A stretch of 64,000 bases of DNA from a virus. The notes beneath the pieces are model-generated. The model did no database searches, had not been told where the DNA came from, and worked only from the letters and a program-made list of their open reading frames with translations. The translations under genes and the position numbers were made by a program. Shown here one piece after another: positions 6,795 to 26,401 of this stretch; within the stretch, counting starts at the first letter, position 1; each line of letters begins with the position of its first letter. The stretch lies in the IMG/VR virus record IMGVR_UViG_3300045988_183350. One strand, 5' to 3'.

Positions 6795-7583
6795 ATGAAA
6801 TATAAAGATATACAAGAAATTTTTAAAGGTGTTGGTAATGACAAATTGTTTAGTAATCACATTTATTTGATTGCTGAGTGTTTATCATTTTTTGCGTTAC
6901 TTGCCTTTGATAATATATTTTCACGGTTAGTTTTCACGCTCGCTTTGATTGTATTTTCGGTACTTTCGGTGACGAGTTCATTGAATTTTTACTCAGTCAT
7001 GCAATCGGACAAAAGTCAGCAAACTGAAATGCTTAATTTGCTTGACATTAGAGACCGCAATTTTGGATTTGATTTAAACATGGCAAGTTTTATTAAATTA
7101 TTTTTGCTTAAGTGGCTAAACATTCTTGGACGTTCAAGCGTATTCATTGTTATTGCAATTATTATGAGTGTGCTTAAGTTCAGTGCATATTTGTGGGTTC
7201 CATTTAGTTTGTTTTTACTTGCGATTTTGTATTATTGGATAATGTATGGATTTGCAAATTTATTGTTTTATAAAAATCGTAACTCGGATACAAAATTGGC
7301 ATTGTATTTAAAGCAAAGTAAAAATCTGATAAGTACACATTTACGTGACCTGGCAAAAACTTACAGTACAATGATTTTGCCATTTATTGGTGCGTGTCTT
7401 CTTGGTTTTGTATTAATTGTCGTCGGTTACATTATGTTTTTAGGCGAGAATTATAACTTCTTGGTATTGCTTAGCGAATTCATTTGTATCGTACCATTTT
7501 TGATTCGATTCCGCTACTTATTTGTTTATACATTTGACAAACTTTATAAGGAAGGACATAAAGACGATGACAAAAACAATTAA
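6795..7583 (+). CDS. Multi-pass membrane protein
   Basis: Several hydrophobic segments; promoter GGTTCAC..TGTGATATAAT at 6727-6757. Confidence 0.5.
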   Translation: MKYKDIQEIFKGVGNDKLFSNHIYLIAECLSFFALLAFDNIFSRLVFTLALIVFSVLSVTSSLNFYSVMQSDKSQQTEMLNLLDIRDRNFGFDLNMASFIKLFLLKWLNILGRSSVFIVIAIIMSVLKFSAYLWVPFSLFLLAILYYWIMYGFANLLFYKNRNSDTKLALYLKQSKNLISTHLRDLAKTYSTMILPFIGACLLGFVLIVVGYIMFLGENYNFLVLLSEFICIVPFLIRFRYLFVYTFDKLYKEGHKDDDKNN

Positions 7584-8520
7584 AAAGACAATTTCACTTG
7601 CATTATTAAGTGTGACTTTATTAGGTACAGCAGGTCCAGCCTTGGCAGACGAAAAGACAGACGTACAAAATCAGATTACGACAATTAACCAAGAGTTAAC
7701 TGATACAACAACTAAAATTTCAGAGTTGCTTGGTAAAATTGGTGACAATGAGGCGGCAATAAAAGATAATGAGGCTAAAATTAAAAGTATTCGCGAGACA
7801 TTAAACAGTCAAGCGAGAGCTATGCAGACAGATTCAGAGCCAACAAATCTTTTCACGCTTTTATTGCAAGCTAAATCTTTATCAGATATTTTTGACATTT
7901 TTAATTCAAGTTCGACCATTGCATCTGCAAATGATGAAAATATTACAAAGATGAATACTTTGATTAAAGAAAATAAAGCCAAACAAGAAAGTTTGACAAA
8001 AGAATTAAATGACTTGCAAAAATCGCAACAAGACCTTGAAAAGTCGAATACTGATTTGCAAAATAAATTACAATCGATTAATGACGCGGAGGCAAAAGCT
8101 AAAGCTGAACAGCAAGTAAAAGCTAACATGCAAAATGCAAAATCTGTTTCAACCGTAGTTGCTCAAACAACAGGTGGTGGTAATTTGCCTAGTCAAGCAA
8201 GCGGTACAAAACAGTTTGCACCTAGTCAAGCTAGGGAAGCTTTCGAGCAAATCACACAAGATTATGGCGTCACGGGTTATGAGAAGCAAATATGGGAACA
8301 AATTATTACAGCTGAATCAGGCTGGAACACGACTGTTTGGAATGGCGGTGGTTCAGGAGCCTATGGTTTAGGTCAAGCATTACCGGCTGACAAGATGGCG
8401 GTTTATGGGTCTGACTACATGACAAATCCATACACACAATTGGTTTGGATGTACAATTATGTTCGCGAGCGTTACGGTAGTTTTGCTGGCGTTCAATGGG
8501 AATCCCGTGGATGGTATTAA
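7567..8520 (+). CDS. Secreted coiled-coil protein with C-terminal lytic-transglycosylase (SLT)-like domain
   Basis: Signal peptide MTKTIKKTISLALLSVTLLGTAGPALA; heptad-rich middle; C-terminus 'AESGWN...AYGLGQA' resembles the SLT ES/GLMQ motifs; start chosen at the Met after RBS AAGGAAGGA (track ORF begins at 7522). Confidence 0.5.
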   Translation: MTKTIKKTISLALLSVTLLGTAGPALADEKTDVQNQITTINQELTDTTTKISELLGKIGDNEAAIKDNEAKIKSIRETLNSQARAMQTDSEPTNLFTLLLQAKSLSDIFDIFNSSSTIASANDENITKMNTLIKENKAKQESLTKELNDLQKSQQDLEKSNTDLQNKLQSINDAEAKAKAEQQVKANMQNAKSVSTVVAQTTGGGNLPSQASGTKQFAPSQAREAFEQITQDYGVTGYEKQIWEQIITAESGWNTTVWNGGGSGAYGLGQALPADKMAVYGSDYMTNPYTQLVWMYNYVRERYGSFAGVQWESRGWY

Positions 8521-8551
8521 AAAAACGCACCGATTTTGGTGCGTTTTTTAT
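8521..8551. terminator. Bidirectional rho-independent terminator
   Basis: AAAAACGCACCGATTTTGGTGCGTTTTTT between convergent genes. Confidence 0.65.
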
Positions 8552-8925
8552 TATGGGATTGTGATTAAAATATTATTATTTTCTTTTAAGTGCGTACGTG
8601 TGTTATAAATGGCACGGCTTAGTTTTTGGTTGTGCTCGATATGGCTTTCGTGCAAAATATGGCGGTAATCGCCAATAATAATAAGTGTATCACGGAGTGT
8701 TTTAAGCTCGTCTTCGATATACTCAGTTGTGTTATTTGTCACCCACTGAGTTTCGAGAGGTTCGTCAAATTTATCTTTAATAATAAGAGCATTAAAGTAT
8801 AGACGTGACGGGTCGATAAAAACGATTTTTGACACTTGAGTACTTTTATCGGCAATTAAATGCAATAGTCGGGTTTGTGTGGTTGGTGAGAGCTCAAACA
8901 AACGTTGTTTCTTCTGTGGTTTCAT
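8551..8925 (-). CDS. Hypothetical protein
   Basis: 124-aa ORF; RBS AAGGAG 10 nt upstream; overlaps the upstream gene by 32 nt. Confidence 0.4.
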   Translation of the reverse strand: MKPQKKQRLFELSPTTQTRLLHLIADKSTQVSKIVFIDPSRLYFNALIIKDKFDEPLETQWVTNNTTEYIEDELKTLRDTLIIIGDYRHILHESHIEHNQKLSRAIYNTRTHLKENNNILITIP

Positions 8926-9379
8926 TTAAAAAATCTCCTTTGAAATTATAAATAGTTGCACTTGTCAAATTAGGTTCCTCATTTACTAAAGTCAAACGAA
9001 TCCAATCATTTAGTGTAAGAACTTCTTTTTCATTACAAATCATGGATTGTACGTTATCTGTAAAACTAAATTCAGACCTTAAGTCGTTGTAAACGTCACT
9101 AACATTGACAACTTCGGTTTCGTAAGCATCGATTTCGACAATACAACAGTCCTTATGAAATGACATTTGAGCAAAATCATAGGCAACGTCGTATGATTGT
9201 GAAAAGCTTTTATTTTTAACAAAAAGTTTATCACCGTCAGTTTCGATAACGTCAAAACCTCTATATATCGGTGTTTCGTTTACTGTGACATATTCGGCAA
9301 GCTCGTCAATATAGTATGTATTGTTATAAGCTACGTGGTCAATAAGCCAGCGATAAAGCTTTTCTTTTGCTGTTGACAT
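8894..9379 (-). CDS. Hypothetical protein
   Basis: 161-aa ORF; minus-strand promoter ACGTTTACTTTTA..TGATATAAT in 9405-9457; RBS AAGGAGAC. Confidence 0.45.
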   Translation of the reverse strand: MSTAKEKLYRWLIDHVAYNNTYYIDELAEYVTVNETPIYRGFDVIETDGDKLFVKNKSFSQSYDVAYDFAQMSFHKDCCIVEIDAYETEVVNVSDVYNDLRSEFSFTDNVQSMICNEKEVLTLNDWIRLTLVNEEPNLTSATIYNFKGDFLNETTEETTFV

Positions 9380-9467
9380 GAAAGATAAGTCTCCTTAATT
9401 TAACAAAGTTTAATATATAATTTTATTATATCATAAATCAAATAAAAGTAAACGTAATTTAAGCAAA

Positions 9468-9512
9468 AAACGGTTTACTTTTATTAATTTTATGATATAA
9501 TTAATTATATCA
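9468..9512 (+). promoter_or_regulatory. Conserved promoter (ACGGTTTACTTTTA ... TTATGATATAAT), divergent from the minus-strand promoter at 9405-9457
   Basis: Direct motif match. Confidence 0.6.
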
Positions 9513-9539
9513 ATTAAACATATAAGGAGTTTTAAACAA

Positions 9540-9758
9540 ATGGCCGATAAATTAATGTCTCGCCGAATGGCATCTCACTATTTGGGCACATCAAAACGCT
9601 ACTTGAAAGCTTTAACACAGGTTGGACGAATGTTTCCTGAAAAGTCGTTTCCTGAACGCTGGTCTAAACAAGACTTAGACCGTTACAAACAGGAAATTGG
9701 TCGTGACATCACGCCTGACCTTGAAGCATCACTAATTCGTAGTGCAAAATCGCGTTAA
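9540..9758 (+). CDS. Small basic protein, possible DNA-binding regulator
   Basis: 72-aa ORF with RBS AAGGAG; Lys/Arg-rich. Confidence 0.4.
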   Translation: MADKLMSRRMASHYLGTSKRYLKALTQVGRMFPEKSFPERWSKQDLDRYKQEIGRDITPDLEASLIRSAKSR

Positions 9759-10009
9759 AACCATTTACAAAATGACAATTACGCGATATAATAAAATTAC
9801 TAAAATTAAAAATTAAGAAAACGTAACATATAGTTCTTTTGATTTATTTTTTTAGTTAATCTTAACAACTTAAAGCCGCTTGGTTTTCAACTAGGTGGCT
9901 TTTTCACGTTACGACTATATTACAAAATTTAAAATTTTATATGCAATTCTAATAATTCGTGTTATAATAATATTATAGACTAAAAAAACTTATACAAAAG
10001 GAAGATTCG

Positions 10010-11110
10010 ATGATACATAAACGATTAAAAGGTAAAATTTTATATAGTTCAGTAATCTTAGGTGTAGCTTTATTTTCAGGAGTTTCGCCTGTAACAGCAT
10101 TAGCTGATGACAATAATTCTGTGAAAATTGACAAAATTATTTCAAGTTCACAAGATATTGACAAGTCGTCAGAGCAATCTTTGAATGCGTCAATTACAAA
10201 ATTGCAAAACTCAATTTCAGATTTGGAGTCTGAAAACAAGCAATTGCAATCTGAGGTTGACAAATTAGCTAAAGATTTGGACAAATTGACAAAAGATATT
10301 ATTGCTCGTAACAAGCAATTAGAGTCACAGGCTGTTGACATGCAAACGTCTACAGGTTCAGATGGCATTATTGGAGCATTGACGTCTTCAAAATCAATTT
10401 CAGATGCAATTTCAAAATTGACAGCTATGGGAACAATCTCGTCTGCAAATGACAATGCCATTAAAGATTTGAAAAAACAAAAGACTGAATTAGAGAAGAA
10501 ACAAAAGGAAAATCAGGCTAAAATCAATGAGATTGTGGAAAACACACAAAAATTGAATGAGGCTAAAGCAAATTTAGACGTAGCTAAACTTGAATTGCAA
10601 GCGAAACAAGAAGAAGCTCGAAAAGCTGACGAAGCTAAAAAAGCTGAAACGGCAAAAGCTTTGAAAGCGGCTGAAAGTAAAGCCGATTCTGTGAAAAATG
10701 CAACAAGTAATCTCGAAGCGCGAAGCAATGAGGCTGTACAACCAGGTGAGGGTAATTTCACGCCTAATTACTCAGGTAATACTTATCCAGCTGGCCAATG
10801 TACTTGGGGCGTGAAATCACTACTTCCTTGGGTTGGTAATTACTGGGGTAATGCAAACCAATGGGGAGCAAGTGCACAAGCTGAAGGACACACTATCGGA
10901 AATACGCCTAAGGTTGGAGCTATTGCCGTTTGGCCTGAGGATGGCGGTGGCTATGGACACGTCGCCGTAGTTTCAAAAGTAAACAGTGCAACGTCTATTG
11001 AAGTATTAGAGTCAAACTATGCAGGTAATATGTCAATCGGTAATTACCGTGGCACATTTAATCCGCAAGCTGTTTGGTCTGGAAGTTCAGTATATTATAT
11101 TTATCAATAA
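10010..11110 (+). CDS. Secreted coiled-coil peptidoglycan hydrolase with C-terminal CHAP domain (PcsB-like)
   Basis: Signal peptide; long heptad/coiled-coil region; C-terminal 'GQCTWGVK...GYGHVAVV' places the Cys/His CHAP catalytic pair. Confidence 0.65.
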   Translation: MIHKRLKGKILYSSVILGVALFSGVSPVTALADDNNSVKIDKIISSSQDIDKSSEQSLNASITKLQNSISDLESENKQLQSEVDKLAKDLDKLTKDIIARNKQLESQAVDMQTSTGSDGIIGALTSSKSISDAISKLTAMGTISSANDNAIKDLKKQKTELEKKQKENQAKINEIVENTQKLNEAKANLDVAKLELQAKQEEARKADEAKKAETAKALKAAESKADSVKNATSNLEARSNEAVQPGEGNFTPNYSGNTYPAGQCTWGVKSLLPWVGNYWGNANQWGASAQAEGHTIGNTPKVGAIAVWPEDGGGYGHVAVVSKVNSATSIEVLESNYAGNMSIGNYRGTFNPQAVWSGSSVYYIYQ

Positions 11111-11137
11111 TTGTCAGAAAATAAAAAATAAATCTTA

Positions 11138-11172
11138 AAAAGGATTTACTTTTTATTTTTATTTGTTATAAT
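11138..11172 (+). promoter_or_regulatory. Conserved promoter (AGGATTTACTTTTT ... TGTTATAAT)
   Basis: Direct motif match. Confidence 0.55.
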
Positions 11173-11207
11173 TAAATAAATACTTAATTAAAAACAAAGG
11201 AAATTTT

Positions 11208-12269
11208 ATGAAGATTAAAAAACTTTTATATAGTACAATGCTTTTAGGAACATTTGCGACAGCAACTTTGCCTAGCGTTCACGCTTTGGCTGAAGACACA
11301 ACTGTCGACAGTATTGTTTCTGAAGCCTCTAATTTGGACCGTTCGTCAATTAGTTCATTGAATGCGTCTATTACAAAGTTGCAAACGGCAATTTCAGATT
11401 TGGAAGCAAAAAACAATGAATTAAAAGCTGAAGTGGACAAGCAAAATGAGGAAGTTGAAGCGTTAGCTAAGAATGTCATTGCACGAACAAAACAATTAAA
11501 CAAACAAGCTGCAGACATGCAAACGACCTCTAAAGGTACATGGCTTGACGCAGTTACTTCGTCGGGGTCATTGTCTGATATATTGTCTAAACTCTCGGCT
11601 ATGGGAACAGTGTCATCGGCAAATAATGACGCGATTACTGATTTGAAAAAACAAAAAGCTGAGCTTGAGAAGAAGCAAAAAGAAAATCAGGATAAGATTA
11701 ATGAAATTAATAGTAACAGTCAAAAGCTTGAAACAACCAAAGCTGATTTGGAAGTAGCTAAACAGGATTTGTTGCATAAGCAAGGTTATAATAATGAAGA
11801 AGAATTGCTCGCGGCAGAACAAAGAGCCAAAGAAGTCAGAAACGGAGCTAATGGTATTCAGGACCGCAGTAATGAAGCTATTCAAGCTGGCGAGGGTAAT
11901 TTCACACCTAATTATGCGGCGAATTCATATCCTGTAGGTCAGTGTACTTGGGGTTGTAAAGTGTTACTTCCTTGGGTCGGTGACTATTGGGGTAACGCAA
12001 ACCAATGGGGAGCAAGTGCTCAAGCAGCTGGACATACAATTAGTTACACACCCAAAGTTGGGGCTGTTATTGTATGGCCTAATGAGGGTGGCGGTTATGG
12101 ACACGTCGCAGTTGTGTCTAAGGTGATTGACGCAAATACCATTGAGGTTTTAGAGGCTAATTACGGTGGAAGTGCGTATGCCGCTGACCCTCGTGGCGTC
12201 GGCAATTATCGTGGGCCTTTTAACTGGCCATCATCTGGTGGTGGCGGTGCCTACTTTATTTACGAGTAG
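11208..12269 (+). CDS. Secreted coiled-coil CHAP-domain peptidoglycan hydrolase, paralog of 10010-11110
   Basis: Same architecture; 'GQCTWGCK...GYGHVAVV'. Confidence 0.65.
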   Translation: MKIKKLLYSTMLLGTFATATLPSVHALAEDTTVDSIVSEASNLDRSSISSLNASITKLQTAISDLEAKNNELKAEVDKQNEEVEALAKNVIARTKQLNKQAADMQTTSKGTWLDAVTSSGSLSDILSKLSAMGTVSSANNDAITDLKKQKAELEKKQKENQDKINEINSNSQKLETTKADLEVAKQDLLHKQGYNNEEELLAAEQRAKEVRNGANGIQDRSNEAIQAGEGNFTPNYAANSYPVGQCTWGCKVLLPWVGDYWGNANQWGASAQAAGHTISYTPKVGAVIVWPNEGGGYGHVAVVSKVIDANTIEVLEANYGGSAYAADPRGVGNYRGPFNWPSSGGGGAYFIYE

Positions 12270-12417
12270 AAAATTAGTGAAAAACGAGGATTTTTTCGCG
12301 AAAAAGGGTTTACAAAACTTTCATATCGCGATATAATATATTCATAATCAATTATTAAGTAGCTTGCGCAGCTCTAATCATATTGGAATATGAGTAAAAA
12401 CTTAAAAAAATATTAGA

Positions 12418-12452
12418 AAAAGCGTTTACTTTATATTAAAATATGATATAAT
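12418..12452 (+). promoter_or_regulatory. Conserved promoter (AGCGTTTACTTTA ... ATATGATATAAT)
   Basis: Direct motif match; ~65-nt leader before hup. Confidence 0.55.
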
Positions 12453-12517
12453 ATATATAAAGAGTAAAGCAATTTACTTAATAAAAAAATATTTTAAATT
12501 AAGAGGTAAAATTAATT

Positions 12518-12796
12518 ATGGCAATTAATAAAAAACAACTTGTTGATGCAGTAGCAGAAAAGACTGGTCTTACTAAGAAAGACTCAGCAGCAGCTTATGA
12601 TGCAGTATTTGCAGCAATCGAAGAATTCCTTGCTGCTGGTGAAAAAGTACAATTGATTGGTTTCGGTAGCTTTGATGTTCGTGACCGTGCAGAACGTAAA
12701 GGTCGTGACTTCCAAACAGGTGAAGAAATCGTTATCCCTGCTACTAAAGTGCCAGGATTTAAAGCTGGTAAAGCACTTAAAGAAGCTGTAAAATAA
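12518..12796 (+). CDS. hup: HU-family DNA-binding protein
   Basis: [23 protein letters not shown]...[41 protein letters not shown] is a canonical HU/IHF fold sequence. Confidence 0.8.
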
Positions 12797-12805
12797 TAAA
12801 TAATT

Positions 12806-12831
12806 AGAGCATTCATGCTCTCTTTATTTAT
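12806..12831 (+). terminator. Rho-independent terminator
   Basis: AGAGCATTCATGCTCT followed by a T-rich tail. Confidence 0.6.
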
Positions 12832-13056
12832 GGCTGAGCAGTCGGTGAACAGGGGTTCGATTCCTCAACTCAGCTTTAACTAATTAAACTCTCTCTTAAT
12901 TAGTTGAATTTATTTTATTTTATTTTAAAATTTTTCTCCCTCTATAATTATAAGGTAGGCAATTCATTTTTGATTGTTTACCTTTTTATTTTATTTACAA
13001 AAGGTTTATTTTATGATATGATAATAACTAATAAGTAAAAGGGGATTATTATTTAT

Positions 13057-15042
13057 ATGAATTTAAAAAAATTGACATTACCAATTGCGGCCCTTGCCGT
13101 AACTTTAGTGCCTACATTAGCTAGTGCCGACAGTTATGGGTCAACAGACTCTTATTCACGTATTGAATCTGACAAAATGTTACTTGTTCAATCTTTTGTG
13201 AATAAATCAGATGATATGGAATCAACTGCAGTTGAGGCATCTGAACAAGCTTATGTGGCATTATCAAATTATCGTTCGAGTGTATCATTTAAAGCGTCAC
13301 GTGAGTTTAATGCTATGAATATTCGATTTACAGTGCCAGATGGTCAAACAGGGAAATTGAGTTTGAAAGTAAATGGACAAATCGTAAAAACGCTTGATTT
13401 ATCGTCTCAATCGTCATGGCAATACTTATCGGGAGATAAGGCCTCAAATGACGCAAGCAACGACGCTCATGCGCGTTTCAGATTTGATGAAACTTACTTT
13501 GTACTCAATCAAACTGTCCATAATGGCGACACAATCGAATTGGTCAATGAGTCAGGAACTCAAGTTGGGCTTGATTTTGTCGAGCTTGAAACAGCACCTG
13601 AACCAATTAAACAACCTGCAAACAGTGTTTCGATTACTGATTTTGGAGCAAGACCTAATGACGGCCAGGATGATTCAGACGCTTTATTTGCAGCAGTTTA
13701 TCAGGCGAAGCAAACTGGAAAATCAGTTTATATTCCTGCAGGCGAATTCACATTTAACCGCAAAATTTGGTTGGAAGCAAACGACTTAAAAATCACTGGT
13801 GCAGGAATGTGGCACACGAAATTATACTTTACAAGTGATGCGCAAGGCGGTGGTGGTTTTGAGTTTGGACACAATTCAAATCGTATTGAGTTGAGTAACT
13901 TGTCAATGGACTCAAATTTAAAATCACGATATGACGAGCGAGCCAATTACAAAGCCATTGCTGGTACGCTAGGTAAAGATTCAAAAATCAGTAATGTTTG
14001 GATTCAACATTTTGAATGTGGACTTTGGATTGGCGACTATACTGATGCAAAAAACATGAAATACACTGACAATTTGGTTGTGGAAAATGCTCGTATTCGT
14101 AACAATTTAGCTGACGGTGTGAATTTCGCTCAAGGAACAAAAAATTCAGTTGTGAAAAATTCAAACATTCGTGGAAATGGAGACGATGGATTGGCAACTT
14201 GGGCGAGTATTTCAGATGGTACTGAATCTGCCATTGCCGAAAACAATAAATTTGTTTATAATACTATTGAATTAGGTTGGCGAGCTGGTGGCGTTGGTAT
14301 CTTTGGAGGTCGTGGTCACGAGGTTGCATATAATAAGATACAAGATAATTTTGCAAATGCGGGTATTCGTGTAAGTACTGTATTTGCTGGACATAATTTC
14401 GATTTGAATGATTCAGGCATTAATATTCATGACAACTACTTGTATCGCACGGGAACTGTGTCAGATTTGTATGGTCAAAAACGTGGTGCTTTTGACTTTG
14501 AACGACAAAGAGGCGATTTAAAAAATATTAATGTAACAAACAATAAAGTACAATACTCTTTTGCGACAGACAAGACTGATAATGAAAATTTAGTTAATTA
14601 TATTAACAATAGTGTCAGTAATGAGCCTGTCAAGATAGTAAGTGATAATAAGCCTCATAATCGTTTTGTCGACGAAGGTGGTTATTATGTTTACTATAAT
14701 AATAATGGAAATAAAGTAACAGGATTTAATACAATTGACGGTATTAATTATTACTTTTATAATGACGGTCGTCAAGCTAAAGGTGATTTAATTAAAGTAG
14801 ACAGCGACTACTATTATACAACCGGTGATATTGGACGCGTTGTTACTAATGAATTTAAAGAAATTAACGGGTCTTGGTATTTCTTTGGTAAAGATGGTAA
14901 AGCTTTAAAAGGATTTAAGACAGTTGACCATTTAAATTATTATTTCCATACTGACGGAAAACAATCAAAAGGTGAAACATTTAATATTAATGGGCATACT
15001 TATACCACTGACGCAAACACAGGAGTCGTCACTAAAAAATAA
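13057..15042 (+). CDS. Secreted right-handed beta-helix (pectin-lyase-fold) protein with C-terminal cell-wall-binding (choline-binding-type YG) repeats
   Basis: Signal peptide; repeated NxxDG/'GDDGLATWA' beta-helix-like turns; C-terminal repeats 'GFNTIDGINYYFYNDGRQAKG', 'GSWYFFGKDGKALKGF', 'LNYYFHTDGKQSKG'. Confidence 0.55.
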   Translation: MNLKKLTLPIAALAVTLVPTLASADSYGSTDSYSRIESDKMLLVQSFVNKSDDMESTAVEASEQAYVALSNYRSSVSFKASREFNAMNIRFTVPDGQTGKLSLKVNGQIVKTLDLSSQSSWQYLSGDKASNDASNDAHARFRFDETYFVLNQTVHNGDTIELVNESGTQVGLDFVELETAPEPIKQPANSVSITDFGARPNDGQDDSDALFAAVYQAKQTGKSVYIPAGEFTFNRKIWLEANDLKITGAGMWHTKLYFTSDAQGGGGFEFGHNSNRIELSNLSMDSNLKSRYDERANYKAIAGTLGKDSKISNVWIQHFECGLWIGDYTDAKNMKYTDNLVVENARIRNNLADGVNFAQGTKNSVVKNSNIRGNGDDGLATWASISDGTESAIAENNKFVYNTIELGWRAGGVGIFGGRGHEVAYNKIQDNFANAGIRVSTVFAGHNFDLNDSGINIHDNYLYRTGTVSDLYGQKRGAFDFERQRGDLKNINVTNNKVQYSFATDKTDNENLVNYINNSVSNEPVKIVSDNKPHNRFVDEGGYYVYYNNNGNKVTGFNTIDGINYYFYNDGRQAKGDLIKVDSDYYYTTGDIGRVVTNEFKEINGSWYFFGKDGKALKGFKTVDHLNYYFHTDGKQSKGETFNINGHTYTTDANTGVVTKK

Positions 15043-18538: not shown

Positions 18539-18551
18539 CTATCAATACTAT

Positions 18552-18638: not shown

Positions 18639-18646
18639 TAAAATAA

Positions 18647-18718: not shown

Positions 18719-18728
18719 ATTAAATTTA

Positions 18729-18801: not shown

Positions 18802-18891
18802 TAAAATAAATGTAAAAAAACTTTAAAAAAAAGGGTTTACTTTTATTTTAAATATGATATAATATAAATATATATTTTAACTTTAAAATAT

Positions 18892-18964
18892 GGTCTCGTA
18901 GCGCAGCTGGTTAGCGCACTTGCCTGTCACGCAAGGGGTCGCGGGTTCGAATCCCGTCGGGACC
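18892..18964 (+). tRNA. tRNA-Asp (anticodon GTC)
   Basis: GGTCTCGTAGCGCAGCTGGTTAGCGC-ACTTGC-CTGTCAC-GCAAG...CGGGTTCGAATCCCG; own promoter at 18833-18863. Confidence 0.7.
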
Positions 18965-18965
18965 G

Positions 18966-19457
18966 TTCGATTTTAATGTTAACGGCAAATAGACTATTTA
19001 GTCTATAGCTCCGTGAGAGTTTAGCACTCTCTAACATTAAAATCATCTGCCCAGCCTAGGGGCAATACAGTATGGCAACATGCTGAAAGGAATTGTTTGA
19101 GACAACGTTCCGCCAGGTGAAAGCCTGGTTAATTAGGCAATCCATTTTTTAAATCAAACCAATGTAATGCTCCAGAGCTTCCTCACGGGAAGTCCTTCGG
19201 GAACTTTTGGCAGAAAGTCATAAGTTGACTAGCTAGCAAAGTTAGCTTGTGGGCAACGGAGTAGTAAAATGGAAGGATTAGTAGTTAGCCTATGCAGGGG
19301 CTAGCGGAATCCATGGTAATACGTAAATGGTTGGCGGATTATGATAAGTATTATCGAGTTTCATATACCGTAGCGGGTAGCGAAATAATAAATTGGCGTG
19401 GAGCATTTTGTCGGTCAAAAGCTGACGAAACTCCGAGGCACAGCACGTCAATGTCTC
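18966..19457 (+). ncRNA. Unassigned ~490-nt highly structured non-coding segment (candidate ncRNA; identity unresolved)
   Basis: No ORF; many stable hairpins (AGACTATTTAGTCT, GAGAGTTTAGCACTCTC, GGGAAGTCCTTCGGGAACTT); sits inside the tRNA operon. Confidence 0.3.
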
Positions 19458-19535
19458 ATAGGTAATTAGCTCACGTTGGTAGAGCAGTTGACAGTAAATC
19501 GATAGGTCGTGGGTTCGATTCCCACATTACCCTCC
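19458..19535 (+). tRNA. tRNA-like element, anticodon GTA (Tyr), atypical (A33, short variable arm, A1:C72)
   Basis: AGGTAATTAGCTCACGTTGGTAGAGC-AGTTGA-CAGTAAA-TCGAT-AGGTC-GTGGGTTCGATTCCCAC-ATTACCC; the 3' end resembles a tmRNA/tRNA T-arm. Confidence 0.4.
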
Positions 19536-19855
19536 AGGAAAGCGAAAGTCTGTGTCAGACTTAAAAAGAAAGAACATTAAATCCATACAGTTTTTACTGA
19601 ATATGGAGGCGTTACGAGCTCGCAAGCAAGTATCGCTTTAGTCCAAGTATTTCCGCAAACTTGAGCCGTACAACTCAGGTCTAACGAAATCGGGCCGAGT
19701 AAGTTTAGGTCTTAAGAGTTAGCATCACTCGCGGGTTTGTAACCGTAAACGATGAATGTTTGTGAGATACAACTGGGAACAGTTGTGGATAAGTGATTAA
19801 CCAATAAGGTCACTAAAGGCTCACATTTTAATGCCGTAATCTCAGGCATGACTAA

Positions 19856-19937
19856 TCCAGGATAGCCAAGCGGTAAGGCATGGGACTTTGACTCCTAGAC
19901 GCGCTGGTTCGAATCCAGCTCCTGGAATTCCATTTAA
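19856..19937 (+). tRNA. tRNA-Gln (anticodon TTG)
   Basis: Acceptor TCCAGGA/TCCTGGA; anticodon arm TGGGA-CTTTGAC-TCCTA; T-arm GCTGGTTCGAATCCAGC. Confidence 0.55.
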
Positions 19938-20025
19938 AATTAAGAAATGAGGAAACATAAAATGAAAACAAATACAAATACAAAACGATGTTGGACAACT
20001 TTTTAATTTAGTATATTATTAAGTT

Positions 20026-20103
20026 GTCTGTGTAGCCAAGTGGTTTAAGGCGGTGGATTGCAACCCCACTATTTTTTCGCAGGTTCGAATCCTGTCGCAG
20101 ACT
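20026..20103 (+). tRNA. tRNA-Cys (anticodon GCA)
   Basis: Acceptor GTCTGTG/CGCAGAC; anticodon loop TTGCAAC; T-arm GCAGGTTCGAATCCTGT. Confidence 0.5.
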
Positions 20104-20605
20104 TAAAATGAAAGGATGATATAAAAAAATGTTTAATTCAGACATTCACAAATTGATGGCACATGCACCAACTCATGTTCGTGAACTTCCAATGTTCAAA
20201 GAACACCTATCACACATGGTTGCTCAAACAAGCCATCAGAAACAAGAAAAGAAAGACTAACAAATTGTTAGCCTTTTCTTTTTATTCATTTTGAGATATA
20301 ATTATAGTATAATATTTATTCATTAACCAAAATGCACTATTTATGTACTTATTATTCGTAGTATTTAAATACAAGTACACCTTTTTGGAAAAAAATGATA
20401 AAAAAGGGTTTACTTTTATGAGTTTTATGTTATAATACTAAATGTACTGGTAAATTAGAGCCTAGTATATGAGTGTTATGCACATAAATAAACCCAATCT
20501 TAAAAAATTTTTTAAAAAATTATAAAAATAAGGTTTACTTTTATTTTAAATGCGCTATAATGTATGTATAATCAATAAATATTAAATAAAAAGAGGTAAA
20601 AAAAC

Positions 20606-23167
20606 ATGAAATCTAATAAAAAAACACTTTCAACCATCGCTGCAGCTGCAGCTGTCGTAACTGCATCAGGTACAGTCGTTGCACATGCTGATACAACCGA
20701 TGTAACAGTTAATGCAAATACTGCTCCTACAACTGAAACAGTAAAACCTGCTGAAAATACAGGTGTCACTGCTGAACCAACTAATTTGCAAGAAGCTGAA
20801 ACTAATCTTTCACAGATTGAACCAGCCTATCAAAATGCGGTCGCAGAACAATCAAATGCGCAAACTAATTTAAATGCGGCAACAGATGCACAAAATCAAG
20901 CAGTTGAGTTTGCCAATCAAAATGCACGAGCTTTGAATGATGCAAATGCACAGCTTGACTCAAAAGCCGCTGAACTTAGCGACGCTAAGAATGACCAGGC
21001 TAATGCACAAGCTGATGTCAATGCAGCTGAACAAGCTCTTAATAAAGAAGTTGCCAAAAATCCAACAGCTGAAGCTGATTTGACTCAAGCGGAAACTGAC
21101 GCTCAAAAAGCAAATCAAGCAAAAGTTGCCGCTGAAAACCACGAAGCTGATGTGCAAAAAGAAATTGCAAAAGCTGACAAATCTGCGGGTGAATTGTCTG
21201 AAAAAGTTGCAAAAGAACAAGGTTCAGTAGACACTTTGGCAAAACAAGCTCAAGATTTGGCTAAAACTTCTGACGAAGCACACAAAGCACAAGCTGACGC
21301 TGAAAATGAATTGGCTGAAAAACAAACTGAAGTGAACACTAAAGTGGCTAAATTGCAAAGTGATGTGGACAACGCATCAACTGATGACATTATCACGTAC
21401 GAACGTACAGACGCGAAAACACTTAACGGATTTGACTATGACCGTGACGACGCGAATGAAGGCGCTGGTAAAACTAAGGAAGTTGTCATCACTGACGGTA
21501 AAGAAACTGTTAATATTAATTTGACTCCAGAACAACAATTGGATTACCAATCAACAGGTGGATTCACTTACACACCAAATATGGCAGAAGTGAACAAACA
21601 TTTGGTTGCTTACATTAATCGTCTTCGCGAAATCAATGGTATTACTGACAAAGTAACTACAGATGACGTTGCTCAAGCATTCGCTCAAGCTCGTGCAGAT
21701 GAATTGACAAAAAATGATGTATTGTCTCACCACTCATCAATGGGTCATCCACATTCTTGGGAAAATATTGGCGGCGTTATGTACAACACTAGCAGCAACT
21801 ACTTTTACAATCCGTACATTGTATTGTCTGACCAACAATTCGCTTACATGGAATTGGCTCACTGGTTTGCCGAATACCGTAATGCCGCATCAGGCGCAGG
21901 AAGTGTACAATATGGACACCGCCTTGCATTGCTCTTCTCAGTAGGTAATGTTGGATTTGGTGCTACAAATAAACCTGGCACTGAAGCCAATGAATTCGAC
22001 GGTTATGCGTCACTAAATGTATTTGCATATCCAGGTCAAAGTTCGAAATCTGAAGCACTTAAAAATGTTACTTACGAAAACGAAGATGGCCGTTTGGTAA
22101 TGTACCTTAACGGTAAACGTGTGAAATTCTTGCCTGAAATCACATTTAACTATGTATCAAACAAGAAAATTGTAACACCATCAACAGCTAAACAAGATGC
22201 TCAAGCGCGTCTTGACGCTTACAAAGCTGAAGCTGCGAAAGTATTGGCCGAAGCTCAAACTAAAGTTAACGAAGCAAAAGCACAAACAGCTGATATTGAC
22301 GGTCAATTGGCTAAAGTTAATGCAGATTTGGCATCACACCAAGCATCTCTTGATAGTCTTAAAGCTGAATTGGCTAACTCTAAATCAATTTCAAATGATT
22401 TGAAAGCTCGTCTTGTCGAAGCTACTGCTGACGTGAATGCGACAAAAGCTGACAAAGAAAAAGCTGACGCGAAACTTGCTGAAATCAAAGCTCAAAACAA
22501 AGCTTTGACTGAAGCTCGTACTAAATACACTGAAGCTGTCAATAAAGTTGAAACTCTTAAAGAAAACGTTCAAAAACTTGAATCTGACATTAAAGGTTTG
22601 ACTGAAACTCGTGACGGTCTTGCAGCTAAACAAGATGGTTTGAACAAAGCTGTCGAAACTGCAAAAGCTAAAGTCGCTGAAGCTAAAACCGCTTATGAAG
22701 CTGCGAAAACAAAAGCAAATGAATTGACTAAAGCCTACGTGAAAGCTCAAGCTGACGTGCTTAAATTCACACCTAAAGAAGCTCCAAAACCTGAAGTAAA
22801 CCAAGGTGCAAACGTTGAAGTGAAACCAGAGGCAAAAGTTGAAGTAAAACCAGGCCAAGCAGGTGTTAAAACAAATGGTCAAACTGTGGCTAAAACAAAT
22901 GGTCAAACAGCTCAAGTACAACCAGGTACAGTGGCGACTCAAACAGCCAATGGTACACACGTAAACGTGAATTACGTGGCTCAAGCGACGCCTGAAACTG
23001 GTTCAGTAAAAGCGGATGGCGCATTTGTTGGCTCACGTGTGGCTAAACATACAAACGAATTGCCATCAACTGGTGACAATGGTTCAATGCTCGGTGCAGC
23101 TGGACTCGCAATTGTATCGGCGCTTGGATTGGCTGGATTTGTGAACCGTCGTCGTAAAAATAGTTAA
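20606..23167 (+). CDS. LPXTG-anchored surface protein with long coiled-coil (M-protein-like) regions and a central globular domain
   Basis: Signal peptide; Ala/Glu/Lys-rich heptads; C-terminal LPSTGD + hydrophobic segment + RRRKNS sortase signal; tandem promoters at 20406-20436 and 20531-20562. Confidence 0.65.
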   Translation: MKSNKKTLSTIAAAAAVVTASGTVVAHADTTDVTVNANTAPTTETVKPAENTGVTAEPTNLQEAETNLSQIEPAYQNAVAEQSNAQTNLNAATDAQNQAVEFANQNARALNDANAQLDSKAAELSDAKNDQANAQADVNAAEQALNKEVAKNPTAEADLTQAETDAQKANQAKVAAENHEADVQKEIAKADKSAGELSEKVAKEQGSVDTLAKQAQDLAKTSDEAHKAQADAENELAEKQTEVNTKVAKLQSDVDNASTDDIITYERTDAKTLNGFDYDRDDANEGAGKTKEVVITDGKETVNINLTPEQQLDYQSTGGFTYTPNMAEVNKHLVAYINRLREINGITDKVTTDDVAQAFAQARADELTKNDVLSHHSSMGHPHSWENIGGVMYNTSSNYFYNPYIVLSDQQFAYMELAHWFAEYRNAASGAGSVQYGHRLALLFSVGNVGFGATNKPGTEANEFDGYASLNVFAYPGQSSKSEALKNVTYENEDGRLVMYLNGKRVKFLPEITFNYVSNKKIVTPSTAKQDAQARLDAYKAEAAKVLAEAQTKVNEAKAQTADIDGQLAKVNADLASHQASLDSLKAELANSKSISNDLKARLVEATADVNATKADKEKADAKLAEIKAQNKALTEARTKYTEAVNKVETLKENVQKLESDIKGLTETRDGLAAKQDGLNKAVETAKAKVAEAKTAYEAAKTKANELTKAYVKAQADVLKFTPKEAPKPEVNQGANVEVKPEAKVEVKPGQAGVKTNGQTVAKTNGQTAQVQPGTVATQTANGTHVNVNYVAQATPETGSVKADGAFVGSRVAKHTNELPSTGDNGSMLGAAGLAIVSALGLAGFVNRRRKNS

Positions 23168-23176
23168 TTAAATCTG

Positions 23177-23204
23177 AAAATAGCCTAAATTTAGGCTATT
23201 TTTT
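23177..23204 (+). terminator. Rho-independent terminator
   Basis: AAAATAGCCTAAATTTAGGCTATTTTTT. Confidence 0.65.
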
Positions 23205-23276
23205 AGTAAAATTAAGGCTTACTTTACTTTGATTTTGTGATATAATAATCATATAAAAGTATAGGAGGCTAATGAA

Positions 23277-23507
23277 ATGACTGTTACTGTGTATTCAAAA
23301 GATAAATGTCAGCAATGCAAAGGTGTAAAACGCTGGTTGAAGTCTAATGGAATTGCATTTAACGAAATTAATGTTTCGGAACAACCTGAGTACATTCAAG
23401 AAGTCAAAGACCTCGGATTTACGTCACTTCCAGTGGTTAAATCTGGTGATTTGGTCTTTTCAGGCTTGGATATTCCGAAACTTAATGAATTAAAATCGCG
23501 AGGATAA
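23277..23507 (+). CDS. nrdH: NrdH-like glutaredoxin (redoxin for class Ib ribonucleotide reductase)
   Basis: MTVTVYSKDKCQQCKGVKRWL...LPVVKSGDLVFSGL: a CxxC motif in an NrdH-like context. Confidence 0.7.
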   Translation: MTVTVYSKDKCQQCKGVKRWLKSNGIAFNEINVSEQPEYIQEVKDLGFTSLPVVKSGDLVFSGLDIPKLNELKSRG

Positions 23508-23509
23508 GA

Positions 23510-23707
23510 ATGTCAAAAAAGAAAAAATACAAGCATTCGTTGATTAAAGCTGAAAAGCAAGCTAAAAAATTAACGAATTTTAAGCCTGAATTGTATGCTG
23601 ATACAGTTCCGGAATTTAATCCCGAATTGCATGCAGAGGTTGAACCTCTCAAACAGCATAATGTCGATGTAAGTGTAACGGAAACAACAATAGTTGAATT
23701 TCCCTAA
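23510..23707 (+). CDS. Small basic hypothetical protein
   Basis: 65-aa ORF immediately after nrdH. Confidence 0.4.
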   Translation: MSKKKKYKHSLIKAEKQAKKLTNFKPELYADTVPEFNPELHAEVEPLKQHNVDVSVTETTIVEFP

Positions 23708-23728
23708 TTAATGAAAGGTAATATTAAT

Positions 23729-24652
23729 ATGTCAAAATACGATAACGAAATCAAAGCCGCTGAAGCTCATTTGGCTGAACTTAAAGCAAAAAAAGCACAA
23801 GAAAACGAAACTCACGGATTTAATTTCCGTGACATTGCCGAAATCTTTGGTGGTCAAAAAGTAACTGAAGATAAAGCTCAAGAAGGTCGCAAAGCTGATT
23901 TGGAAGAATACCTTGGTATTAACAAGGACCACGAAGCAACTCACGAAGACGTATATGTCGTTGAGGTGTCACCTGAAGCTTATGCTGAACTTAGCCGTTT
24001 GCTTGAGGATGGCGAAGCAACTGACGACGAAATTCGCGAACAGTTGAACGAACTTGAAAAACTTTTTGCTGAAACTCGTGGTGAAGGCGAAGCTGAAACA
24101 CCTGATTTTGGTAAAATCTTCAATGATACTGTTGCATCTGTGAAAACTAAAGGTGAAGAATTGTTCACTAAAGTTAAAGATTCAGATACTGTTGCAAAAG
24201 TTCGTGAAAACGAATTGTTCAACAAAGCACAAACCAAAGCAACTGACTGGTTCACTAAAGCAAAAGAAAAAGCAACTGACGTGGTTGAAGCTGGTAAAGA
24301 TAAGTTTTATGAAATCAAAGACGATTACGAATACTTTAAAGAACTTAAAGCTAAATACCCAGATGCTGAGTTTGTAAAACTTAGCGAAGATACATTCAGT
24401 GTACGCTTGCCACAATTCGGAAATGATTTTGTGTTTACATTTGTAGACGAACATAGCCTTGTAGGTGTGGATTACGTTGCCGAAGAAGAACACGAACCAG
24501 CACCTGTTCATGAAGATGGTTTTATTACAAGTATCGTCTCAGGTCATGCACATGTACACCACAAGATTGAATTCGTAAACGAGATTGAGGTTGAAGGCAT
24601 TGACGACGTTGACACACTTGCTGAAGTTTTGGATGATTACTTCACTCTTTAA
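23729..24652 (+). CDS. Acidic hypothetical protein
   Basis: About 307 aa, Glu/Asp-rich; start chosen at the ATG with RBS AAAGG (track ORF begins at 23711). Confidence 0.45.
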   Translation: MSKYDNEIKAAEAHLAELKAKKAQENETHGFNFRDIAEIFGGQKVTEDKAQEGRKADLEEYLGINKDHEATHEDVYVVEVSPEAYAELSRLLEDGEATDDEIREQLNELEKLFAETRGEGEAETPDFGKIFNDTVASVKTKGEELFTKVKDSDTVAKVRENELFNKAQTKATDWFTKAKEKATDVVEAGKDKFYEIKDDYEYFKELKAKYPDAEFVKLSEDTFSVRLPQFGNDFVFTFVDEHSLVGVDYVAEEEHEPAPVHEDGFITSIVSGHAHVHHKIEFVNEIEVEGIDDVDTLAEVLDDYFTL

Positions 24653-24770
24653 TCATTAAAATTGTCAAAAAACTTAAAAAAAACCTTACAAAAGTAAGGT
24701 TTTTTCATTTACTTTTATTTTATTTGTGGTATAATATAAATAAGTAATTGAATAAGAAAGGATTCATTAT

Positions 24771-25457
24771 ATGACAAATAATGCAATTAAAATGACTAAC
24801 GTTGCCAAAACATATAGCAACGGCGTTAAAGCATTGAGTGATATTAATTTAACTGTGAAACCCGGAGAGTTTGTTTATATTACAGGCCAGTCCGGCTCAG
24901 GTAAATCAACACTCATTAAAAGCTTGTATCGCGAGGAACGTGTGGACGGGGGACGTATTACAGTAAATGATTATGACGTCACTGCTTTAGGTGACTCTGA
25001 GATTTATAAACTCAGACAAGAAATCGGTATTGTCTTCCAAGATTACAAACTCCTTAAAAATAAAACTGTTTATGAAAACATTGTTTACACACTTGATGTG
25101 ACGGACCAAGACCCTGAGACGTTTAGAGCTCGTGTTCTTGAGGTCCTTAAATTCGTAGGTCTTGCCCATAAAATTAATGTGTTCCCAACTGAATTGTCTG
25201 GTGGTGAACAACAACGTGTGGCAATTGCTCGTGCGATTGTAAACCAACCAAAGGTTATTATTGCCGACGAACCTACAGGAAATCTTGACCCTGACACGTC
25301 ATGGGACATTATGAACTTGCTTGAGCGAATCAACCTTAATGGGACAACTGTTCTTATGGTAACACACAACGAAAAAATTGTCAGCAAACTTCGCCACCGA
25401 ACATTGACCATTGAGAGTGGCAAAATCAAATCTGATAAGAAAGAAGCAGGTGAGTAA
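24771..25457 (+). CDS. ftsE: Cell-division ABC transporter ATP-binding protein FtsE
   Basis: Walker A GQSGSGKST, ABC signature LSGGEQQRVAIARA, Walker B IIADEPTGNLD. Confidence 0.8.
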   Translation: MTNNAIKMTNVAKTYSNGVKALSDINLTVKPGEFVYITGQSGSGKSTLIKSLYREERVDGGRITVNDYDVTALGDSEIYKLRQEIGIVFQDYKLLKNKTVYENIVYTLDVTDQDPETFRARVLEVLKFVGLAHKINVFPTELSGGEQQRVAIARAIVNQPKVIIADEPTGNLDPDTSWDIMNLLERINLNGTTVLMVTHNEKIVSKLRHRTLTIESGKIKSDKKEAGE

Positions 25458-25459
25458 AT

Positions 25460-26401
25460 ATGTTCAAACGTAAATGCCAAAAAATTTGGAAGCTCGTAAT
25501 TGCATCATTACTAAATCTTAAACGTAATATTTGGATGTCAGTTATCGCAATTACGTCGACCTCAGTAATGCTTGCTTTGGTTGGTCTATTCGTCGGTGTA
25601 CTTGTAAATACGTCAAAACTAACAAATGATATTGAGAACAAAGTAACAATCAATACTTACTTGGCGACGTCTACAGCCGACAATAGTCAAACTATCAAAA
25701 ATGACCAAGGCCAAGAAGTACCAAACACTGAATACCAAAAAATCAAAACTGAACTTGTTCAGATTGAGGGTGTGAAATCAGTTACATGGTCAAGTAAAGA
25801 CGAGCAATTGAAAAAACTTGTCAAAACAATGGGTAAATCATGGGAAAATATTTCAGGTGACGCCAACCCATTGCATGACACTTATATTGTAAAAGTTAAC
25901 AATCCGAATCAAGTGAAATCAGTTGTCGCAAAAATTAAAAAACTAAATAATATTGCAAAAGTTAATTATGGTGGTGAGACTACTGATAAGATTATTAAAA
26001 TTGCAAATATCACCAAAACTTGGGGTGCAATCGGTATTATTATCTTATTATTTGTTGCGGTCTTCCTTATCTCAAATACAATCCGTATTACAATTATGGC
26101 TCGAAAAGATGAAATCCAAATTACACGTTTGGTTGGTGCAAAAAACAGCTACATTCGTTTGCCATTCATCTTTGAAGGTCTCTGGATTGGTATTTTAGGT
26201 TCGGTGATTCCATCGATTCTTATTGGTTGGGTGTATAACGTTATTTATGCAACTTACAGTCAATCAATCGCCGCTCAAAACTTAGCTTTGGTAACACCAG
26301 GTTCAATGGTAACACGAGTTATCTTAGTTATGATTATCTTGAGTTCATTAATTGGTGCCGGCTCATCACTATTTGCAATGCAAAAGCATCTTAAAATTTA
26401 A
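25460..26401 (+). CDS. ftsX: Cell-division permease-like protein FtsX
   Basis: Immediately follows ftsE; N-terminal TM, large extracellular loop, C-terminal TM bundle (FtsX topology). Confidence 0.7.
   Translation: MFKRKCQKIWKLVIASLLNLKRNIWMSVIAITSTSVMLALVGLFVGVLVNTSKLTNDIENKVTINTYLATSTADNSQTIKNDQGQEVPNTEYQKIKTELVQIEGVKSVTWSSKDEQLKKLVKTMGKSWENISGDANPLHDTYIVKVNNPNQVKSVVAKIKKLNNIAKVNYGGETTDKIIKIANITKTWGAIGIIILLFVAVFLISNTIRITIMARKDEIQITRLVGAKNSYIRLPFIFEGLWIGILGSVIPSILIGWVYNVIYATYSQSIAAQNLALVTPGSMVTRVILVMIILSSLIGAGSSLFAMQKHLKI

Follow-up and report, generated by a model that had tools for sequence, protein, structure and literature searches.

Here we analysed the 64,000-nt stretch of DNA held as IMG/VR record IMGVR_UViG_3300045988_183350 (GC content 33.5%; this whole stretch is called the window below), which is most likely part of a giant (~300-400 kb) extrachromosomal plasmid-like element of oral streptococci, quite probably one of the Inocles. 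It carries a predicted bicistronic ftsEX operon and, ~12 kb upstream of it, the genes of three secreted proteins with a PcsB-type coiled coil, the catalytic ends of which are two CHAP domains (amidase/endopeptidase) and one domain that appears to be lysozyme-like or lytic-transglycosylase-like. With a confidence slightly better than even, we propose that the element carries a diverged, streptococcus-derived FtsEX-PcsB-type machine and would remodel the wall of its host by means of hydrolases activated by its own FtsEX. An initial annotation of this DNA had suggested that the element brings its own FtsEX together with coiled-coil hydrolases, and this suggestion is borne out, on a carrier that is non-chromosomal.

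The ftsEX operon and the three coiled-coil proteins

The product of ftsE (24771-25457, + strand) is an ABC ATPase that matches TIGR02673 with 277.9 bits (cut-off 264.85) and has its ABC motifs intact (Walker A GQSGSGKS, signature LSGGE, Walker B VIIADEP and the H-loop). FtsX (25460-26401, + strand) is of the Gram-positive type, scoring 318.4 bits with NF038347 FtsX_Gpos (cut-off 225), 66.7 bits with the extracellular domain PF18075 and 45.5 bits with the permease domain PF02687, and simple hydropathy places four hydrophobic segments in it at residues 23-55, 181-214, 232-263 and 274-308. Both proteins thus lie above the NCBIfam curated cut-offs, and the pair (24771-26401) had rightly been called canonical. 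Because the ftsE stop is separated from the ftsX start by only 2 nt, and because a promoter-like site at 24708-24735 (+; TTTACTTTTA...TGGTATAAT) is preceded by a terminator-like hairpin at 24678-24705, the two genes are predicted to form a bicistronic operon; the one promoter at 24708 is followed by the next only after ftsX, at 26443.

None of the chromosomal FtsX proteins found exceeds 49% identity to that of the element, the first extracellular loop (ECL1) of which aligns with the structures of pneumococcal FtsX ECL1 (PDB 6HE6 and 6MK7). Within the helical lobe of this loop L115, M119, W123 and N131 (S. pneumoniae numbering) are kept, these being the residues whose combined mutation in S. 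pneumoniae FtsX abolishes PcsB binding or viability (PMC6355983). Two positions of the lobe are altered, D121 being Lys in all element lineages and F126, which S. pneumoniae FtsX likewise requires to bind PcsB, being Ile in the window and Ile or Leu across lineages. The loop that contacts PcsB reads MGK[SRT]WE in all three element FtsX lineages and [ML]GD[NT]W..F in the streptococcal chromosomal FtsX proteins compared, and D121K and F126I/L are the only changes specific to the element among the FtsX sequences compared. The charge changes E113K and E117K in helix alpha-2 were also considered as a mark of an orthogonal FtsX and were rejected, both positions varying among chromosomal FtsX proteins too.

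The two CHAP proteins, PcsB-like 1 (10010-11110, +) and PcsB-like 2 (11208-12269, +), each consist of a signal peptide, a coiled coil (PF24568, 60.8 and 50.1 bits, respectively) and a CHAP domain (PF05257, 72.2 and 65.5 bits), which agrees with the architecture that had been read from the letters. The signal peptides of all three secreted proteins were judged by eye, from a basic hydrophobic N-terminus ending in ALA followed by D or E. PcsB-like 1 can be aligned with pneumococcal PcsB (PDB 4CGK) across its two domains and has C292, H343 and E360 conserved, its motifs GQCTWG, GYGHVAV and LESNY pairing with GECTWG, GYGHVAV and SESNY in that structure, and the triad motifs of PcsB-like 2 are GQCTWG, GYGHVAV and LEANY. 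The PcsB equivalog model NF046104 gives 290.7 bits for PcsB-like 1 and 233.2 bits for PcsB-like 2, both below its cut-off of 450, and on these sequences the pair is best called PcsB-like paralogues rather than PcsB orthologues. Identity to streptococcal PcsB is 35-47% overall and unevenly spread, the coiled coils being 31-37% and the CHAP domains 59-73% identical to those of streptococcal PcsB (68-73% for PcsB-like 1's CHAP domain). PcsB-like 2 has an insertion in its CHAP domain and a Gly-rich (GGGG) tail; an exact look-up of this protein was empty, and the representative of a 98%-similar cluster (P0004) was used in its place. Next to the tandem pair, as had been noted before, lies hup (12518-12796, +; PF00216, 114 bits), which encodes an HU-type DNA-binding protein and holds the same position by the hydrolase cluster in all lineages seen; it is a conserved neighbour that stands outside the mechanism proposed here.

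The third secreted protein (7567-8520, +; 317 aa) had been described as signal peptide, coiled coil and SLT-like domain. The first two of these parts hold, the coiled coil matching PF24568 CC_PcsB with 34.9 bits (cut-off 27), and the SLT-like part is supported only indirectly: its last ~80 residues match NCBIfam NF052397 AggPromo_Cterm with 73.1 bits (cut-off 40) as well as PHROG 'transglycosylase' families, and a Pfam search at E <= 0.01 gave no match to PF01464 (SLT), the CHAP and FtsX permease families having been found where expected. Three of the ten closest relatives (P0241, P0242 and P0247) do carry a precomputed PF01464, one relative is annotated as a lytic transglycosylase, and in the alignment of relatives the motifs E-S and SGAYGL are invariant. 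The E-S and GAYGLxQ motifs recall motifs I and II of SLT-family lytic transglycosylases, and we therefore describe the C-terminal domain as putatively lysozyme-like or lytic-transglycosylase-like. Compared with the proteins that bear the C-terminal domain of aggregation-promoting factors, and with the SLT family, the domain is here fused instead to a PcsB-type coiled coil, and a search of 1.84 billion cluster representatives found full-length matches in only ~6 unnamed metagenome clusters, with some of these sequences located on related contigs. The start was placed at the ATG at 7567, which has a ribosome-binding site (AAGGAAGGA) and agrees with the same call on sister contigs (317 aa); the TTG start at 7522 given by the ORF (open reading frame) finder was rejected in its favour.

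Directly upstream lies a gene (6795-7583, +) for a polytopic membrane protein of 262 aa with several hydrophobic segments and without a Pfam or NCBIfam match. Its 3' end overlaps the gene of the coiled-coil/lysozyme-like protein by 17 nt, so that the two are probably co-transcribed, and a gene of 258-262 aa holds this position in three lineages (L006-L009, L010 and L016).

Conservation, selection and the proposed mechanism

The gene set recurs in diverged relatives of the window. Lineage 2 (L010 and L012, which overlap at 91% DNA identity) encodes proteins 63-68% identical to their window counterparts and retains the hydrolase cluster, made up of genes for the membrane protein and the coiled-coil/lysozyme-like protein, two of the PcsB-like type and hup, with ftsEX ~11 kb downstream of the hydrolases, beyond the tRNA array. 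Each PcsB-like paralogue of the window is closest to a different lineage-2 gene, the orthologue of PcsB-like 2 being the second gene, with which it has the CHAP insertion and the Gly-rich tail in common. As each paralogue is closer to its own lineage-2 counterpart, the duplication of PcsB is older than the split between lineages 1 and 2. PcsB-like 2 is an older paralogue. The cluster of two further lineages is the same but for having one PcsB-like gene, and in one of the two it adjoins a D5-like primase. For ftsEX there is a third lineage (58% identity), which shows the order surface protein, NrdH, ftsE and ftsX with helicase and PARP-like genes downstream. In all, at least four diverged lineages retain the hydrolase cluster, and three retain the ftsEX block.

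To the left of ftsE the window has a gene for an acidic cytoplasmic protein of 313 aa (23711-24652, +; 76 Asp and Glu against 37 Lys and Arg, no hydrophobic segment), which matched none of the families searched; a gene of 297-323 aa stands directly upstream of ftsE in L012 and L013 too. It is possible, as a matter of speculation, that this protein is an accessory factor for FtsEX.

Raw codon counts among variants ~93-96% identical gave synonymous/nonsynonymous changes of 50-55/8-12 in the coiled-coil/lysozyme-like gene, 40-51/4-5 in PcsB-like 1, 46-51/6 in PcsB-like 2, 15/0 in ftsE (compared with L005) and 31-37/9-16 in the gene of the 262-aa membrane protein. Synonymous changes are 4- to 10-fold commoner than nonsynonymous ones in the hydrolase genes, a pattern that indicates purifying selection on these genes and on ftsE. 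Taken together, retention across lineages, the old duplication, purifying selection and intact motifs argue for a functional module and not for debris.

The mechanism we propose is modelled on pneumococcal FtsEX-PcsB, mycobacterial FtsEX-RipC and E. coli FtsEX-EnvC. In S. pneumoniae PcsB is autoinhibited by its coiled coil, which binds the helical lobe of FtsX ECL1, and hydrolysis of ATP by FtsE is thought to free the CHAP domain at the septum (PMC6355983, PMC11627006). All three secreted proteins of the element keep the coiled-coil core QA..MQT....S.S[ILF]S[DE]....SAN, the feature that Pfam CC_PcsB recognises. Comparison with EnvC, which has an FtsX-binding tip, and with RipC, which has a 'Lip', makes this core a plausible site of docking. 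On this model the coiled coils would hold the secreted hydrolases autoinhibited, the conserved coiled-coil tip would dock on element FtsX, at the helical lobe of its extracellular loop, and hydrolysis of ATP by element FtsE would free the catalytic domains, so that peptide and glycan bonds of the host peptidoglycan could be cut under the transcriptional control of the element itself. The two CHAP enzymes would cut peptide stems or cross-links and the third protein probably glycan strands. As a likely outcome, septum splitting, the length of cell chains or the turnover of the wall would change, in concert with other envelope genes of the element family, namely the LPXTG surface protein in the window and the penicillin-binding protein (PBP), sortase and signal peptidase of the Inocle paper (PMC12340149); lysis of the host is a less likely outcome. 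The role of element FtsEX as activator of the three proteins, an orthogonal pairing between them and the physiological outcome are what we infer from these comparisons.

A different explanation, which we consider unlikely, is that the two gene sets are carried independently of one another. The PcsB-like proteins would then use the FtsEX of the host or act unregulated, as extra autolysins or as bacteriolysins against neighbours, or the element FtsEX would serve another role, with another client or by supplementing or competing with host FtsEX. The two sets do lie 12 kb apart in separate operons, a distance that is neutral between the explanations because chromosomal ftsEX and pcsB are unlinked too; where linkage could be checked, both sets co-occur (two of two lineages), and it is the two most diverged lineages, known from short contigs, that were seen with the hydrolase cluster only. 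The key hydrophobic contact residues of FtsX are the same as in host-type FtsX, so that cross-talk with host partners is plausible; against this the contact loop bears its element-specific changes, and the coiled coil, which is the regulatory part, is far more diverged than the catalytic part. Furthermore, there would be no sense in retaining a coiled coil on three different enzymes unless a receptor for coiled coils were in use.

The same contrast between regulatory and catalytic parts, together with the altered contact loop, hints faintly at a private pairing between FtsX and its clients. In its strongest form, the interpretation would be that a giant mobile replicon has captured the septum-splitting machine of streptococci and rebuilt it as a private orthogonal system, in which one FtsEX serves three dedicated clients, two that cut the peptides of the wall and one that cuts its glycan. 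We hold this to be possible rather than probable, since the substitutions in the helical lobe are few and other positions of the lobe vary among chromosomal FtsX proteins. If it were true, the element would set cell separation, chain length or aggregation of its host independently of the host divisome, and even a release or lysis controlled by the element could be envisaged.

Besides this scarcity of lobe substitutions, other points weigh against the interpretation we favour. The link between element FtsX and the three secreted proteins is deduced from sequence. Membership of the Inocles is likewise deduced, from size, composition, gene content and presumed habitat only, because the Inocle marker InoC lies outside the window and the fetched loci, as do VirB4/VirD4 and circularity. 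Moreover, the DNA between the hydrolase and ftsEX gene sets encodes a GOLLD RNA and, in an array, no fewer than 21 tRNAs, which leaves a phage-like life style some probability.

The carrier element and its other genes

By exact-protein look-ups, metagenome contigs 293,163, 298,426 and 325,878 bp in length carry the identical locus, and one of 412,638 bp carries a further cluster member. The neighbouring genes in the window and its flanks include those of a D5-like primase/helicase, a microbial-type poly(ADP-ribose) glycohydrolase (PARG), an ATP-cone protein, a PARP-like protein, a helicase, a flotillin, NrdH, NrdI, HU, an LPXTG coiled-coil surface protein and an alpha-1,3-glucanase with choline-binding repeats. 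Most neighbours are ORFans, without a Pfam or PHROG family, and the context of the locus has no ribosomal or other housekeeping operon. The closest named homologues of both PcsB-like proteins and of FtsX are from Streptococcus, but distant. Scans for exact peptide patterns of FtsX, which detect close relatives only, found 0 copies in the 185,579 representative genomes of GTDB and no relative in IMG/VR.

These properties recall the Inocles, which are circular, 245-395 kb long, of GC ~32% (24% in one taxon), rich in insertion sequences (IS) and tRNA-bearing, and which encode NrdH, LPXTG proteins, sortase A, PBP, signal peptidase, VirB4, VirD4 and the single-copy marker InoC of ~454 aa with the replication-relaxation domain PF13814 (PMC12340149). 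Their host is Streptococcus salivarius; they are lost in liquid culture and absent from isolate genomes, are enriched 16-fold in cell pellets over 0.45 um filtrates and are present in 74% of people (PMC12340149). The element is like them in size class, GC (~32-33%), IS605/TnpB insertions, tRNAs, NrdH, LPXTG surface proteins, Streptococcus-like homologues, absence from isolate genomes and occurrence as several diverged taxa. It differs in its wall genes, which are PBP, sortase A, signal peptidase and LPXTG proteins in the published account and here FtsEX with PcsB-type hydrolases; the main text of that paper has 0 occurrences of FtsE, FtsX, PcsB or CHAP (PMC12340149). PF13814 was not found among the Pfam-scanned ORFs of the window or in the fetched loci, the remainder of the ~300-kb contigs lying beyond these.

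The phage-like context proposed in the initial annotation, and with it a holin-independent lysis, is not upheld. A jumbo phage or phage-plasmid in which FtsEX and coiled-coil hydrolases form such a lysis module, or a module of host takeover, seems to us improbable, one argument for it being the RNA genes that separate the two gene sets. The GOLLD RNA (19391-19848, +) scores 165.7 bits with RF02032 (gathering score 150) and has a tRNA-Tyr embedded in it (19460-19536), and the tRNA array (15263-20103, +), which stands behind a promoter of the element type, holds 21 tRNA genes by ARAGORN and 22 by Rfam; arrays of 22-26 occur in sister and diverged lineages as well (L006 and L010). GOLLD and tRNA arrays are features familiar chiefly from phages and prophages (PMC12286853). 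A phage would also be in keeping with the D5-like primase/helicase, the genes of PARG and of the PARP-like protein, NrdH/NrdI, the great uniformity of the promoter and the many ORFans. In other phages, Sec-secreted lysins that need no holin are known. Against a phage, neither virion genes (capsid, portal, terminase, tail) nor holin or endolysin families were detected by Pfam and PHROGs in the 64 kb or the fetched flanks, the carriers are plasmid-like contigs of 293-412 kb, and the matches to PHROG 'endolysin' were confined to the CHAP core (E 1e-5 to 1e-8), with no phage record holding a full-length homologue. Among cultured phages, megablast of 7000-27000 returned tRNA-sized matches only, and tblastn of a PcsB-like protein and FtsX returned CHAP cores of staphylococcal tail lysins and short unannotated fragments that look like host DNA, so that neither a full-length PcsB nor a credible FtsX is seen in any cultured phage. 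Enzymes of the PcsB type are hydrolases of cell division and autoinhibited (PMC11627006), being gated by FtsEX in the model organism, and those of the element are full-length and not endolysin-like. The pellet enrichment of Inocles and their VirB4 and VirD4 genes (PMC12340149) point in the same direction. Should the element be an Inocle, GOLLD would then occur on a giant plasmid-like element.

We give still less credence to the idea that the hydrolases are VirB1-like enzymes that open the wall for a conjugative type IV secretion system (T4SS) of the element. Hydrolases with CHAP and SLT domains are carried by conjugative plasmids of Gram-positive bacteria, and 334 conjugative plasmids in PLSDB match the CHAP domain. 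These matches cover the CHAP domain only (25-34% of the query, at ~35-43% identity), while streptococcal PcsB matches over the full length. Enzymes of the TraG/PrgK type are membrane-anchored, fuse SLT and CHAP and lie inside a T4SS operon; the element proteins differ from them in having cleavable signal peptides and PcsB coiled coils on separate polypeptides. Inocles do encode VirB4 and VirD4 (PMC12340149), but no T4SS gene, VirB4/VirD4 included, was found within the window or its flanks, where the neighbours are the primase, an iteron region and hup. Finally, an ordinary Lactobacillales chromosome, the setting that would have refuted the initial annotation and to which the streptococcal homologues and such chromosomal gene types as HU, tRNAs, NrdH/NrdI and YqeY might point, is effectively refuted by the divergence of FtsX and of the PcsB-like proteins, the empty GTDB scan for close relatives, carrier contigs that end at 293-412 kb, mostly ORFan genes in place of housekeeping operons and an element-specific promoter that occurs 22 times.

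This promoter, TTTACT-N16-TATAAT, has 22 copies in the window where 0.08 would be expected, each of them upstream of a gene or a tRNA block. Its fuller form is TTTACTTTTA-N12-(TG)nTATAAT; examples lie at 9474, 11145, 12425, 15203, 16365, 18836, 20409, 24708, 26443, 27513, 28933, 30161, 47092 and 62723. It precedes ftsE and PcsB-like 2 (11145-11172, +), and also hup, tRNA blocks and surface-protein genes, and related sites stand before PcsB-like 1 (9764-9792, +) and before the pair of membrane-protein and coiled-coil/lysozyme-like genes (6729-6757, +). The observation of a recurring promoter had thus been sound, and its designation as early-type is not supported, the signal being element-wide and without the mark of an 'early' class. 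The invariant extended -35 sequence (TTTACTTTTA) suggests that a recognition factor specific to the element may exist; an RpoS-like sigma factor has been described for Inocles (PMC12340149).

Where the tRNA array begins, its first tRNA-Met is separated from a tRNA-Ser by a Gly/His-rich tandem-repeat ORF (15313-16350, +) with GGGH-type repeats at 15503-15654, which has no family match and has a 312-aa counterpart on sister contigs. A 3-kb AT-rich stretch without ORFs (1033-4004; GC 25-28%) lies directly downstream of the D5-like primase/helicase gene (58-1032) and contains 21-bp iterons (core AAAAGGTTTACT, in both orientations) in four clusters (1766-1849, 2006-2110, 3429-3490 and 3652-3750); judged by this layout it is a candidate replication origin, and short-read contigs break in it. 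Collinear sister contigs carry IS605/TnpB (Cas12f-like) insertions at differing sites (L001 2084-3703 and 14819-15928; L006 11975-13363; L008 16305-17924), one of which falls between hup and the glucanase gene, a distribution that points to active IS turnover around the hydrolase and ftsEX loci.

Several other genes of the window concern the cell surface. The secreted alpha-1,3-glucanase (13057-15042, +) is mutanase-like (PF22815 and PF22816) and has choline-binding repeats; in oral biofilms it could break down insoluble glucan, and its attachment to choline-containing teichoic acids would be through the repeats. A coiled-coil surface protein of 853 aa with an LPSTG anchor (20606-23167, +) has a central globular domain that gives a faint CAP/SCP match in L012, and the gene of the LPSTG surface protein stands directly upstream of NrdH and ftsEX in three lineages.

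Immediately downstream of ftsX lies a gene for a protein with a PARP catalytic domain (26504-27478, +), the match to PF00644 being weak (23 bits) in the window and stronger in L012, and PARG is encoded at 4005-4766 (+; PF10021, 84 bits). Both are kept in diverged lineages, and together they might act as writer and eraser of ADP-ribosylation. Genes related to RNA and nucleotides cluster at 49977-53258 (+) and encode a HAD domain of the kind in 'Swiss Army Knife' RNA repair proteins (PF18143), an HD phosphohydrolase, NrdI and YqeY, with a HIRAN-domain protein (48151-48567) and a metallophosphatase (47158-47925) upstream of it. Two arrays of tandem paralogues on the - strand are without a family assignment, one of four diverged genes (33133-35671; 169-192 aa, 26-44% identity) and one of five genes with partial similarity (35689-39709; 236-255 aa), and several of these genes have their own promoter of the element type. 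Near the end of the window, ~25 consecutive small ORFs (94-137 aa) with 12-17-nt spacers and a GC of 26-29% occupy 55192-63629 (+); the two that were scanned gave no family match, and only three pairs among them are detectably similar. Such dense packing of ORFans is unusual.

Comparison with known systems

FtsEX and its coiled-coil hydrolases are regarded as core chromosomal division machinery, essential in the pneumococcus, and to our knowledge such systems have not been described as the cargo of a mobile element; our literature search likewise found no description of FtsEX-PcsB on a phage, a plasmid or an Inocle. The interest of the present case is that a complete, conserved and selected copy of FtsEX and its hydrolases, with three putative clients, resides on what is probably a widespread element of the human mouth. 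It offers a testable handle on the effects of the element on its host, in cell separation, chain length, wall turnover and possibly adhesion, and its diverged coiled coils and altered FtsX loop, placed beside the host system, constitute a natural experiment in the specificity of FtsX for its partners. The coiled-coil/lysozyme-like protein is in addition a candidate for a third, glycan-cleaving catalytic class under regulation of the FtsEX type.

The logic of an ATP-driven coiled-coil partner is the same in FtsEX-CwlO of B. subtilis, FtsEX-RipC of Mycobacterium and Corynebacterium and FtsEX-EnvC-AmiA/B of E. coli, the catalytic domains there being others (NlpC/P60 and LytM-amidase). We know of none among them that has a lysozyme-like/AggPromo_Cterm coiled-coil partner or that lies on a mobile element. 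An uncharacterised precedent for an extrachromosomal FtsX and ABC ATPase with a wall peptidase is the cluster of C40 peptidase, FtsX and ABC ATPase on the ~1 Mb megaplasmid of Enterococcus raffinosus (NZ_CP081847.1), also of the Lactobacillales. It differs from the element in that its FtsX is 26% identical, its peptidase is C40 and not CHAP, its genes are adjacent and its carrier is a chromid-like megaplasmid of a cultured species.

The closest counterpart is FtsEX-PcsB of S. pneumoniae (PDB 4CGK and 6HE6), reportedly the subject of work by Sham (2011 and 2013), Bartual (2014) and Rued (2019). The element has the same FtsE ATPase, the same FtsX with four transmembrane segments and an ECL1 helical lobe, and the same secreted hydrolase of coiled coil and CHAP domain with C292, H343 and E360, aligning over the full length with the solved structures, and in both cases ftsEX and pcsB are unlinked. 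The version of the element is extrachromosomal, its FtsX is diverged (at most 49% identity) and carries D121K and F126I, and its PcsB-like proteins score below the equivalog cut-off and have short linkers between coiled coil and CHAP; it has, moreover, two CHAP paralogues and a third presumptive client with another catalytic domain. Judged by these sequences, the system of the element is clearly a derivative of FtsEX-PcsB and not a categorically new one.

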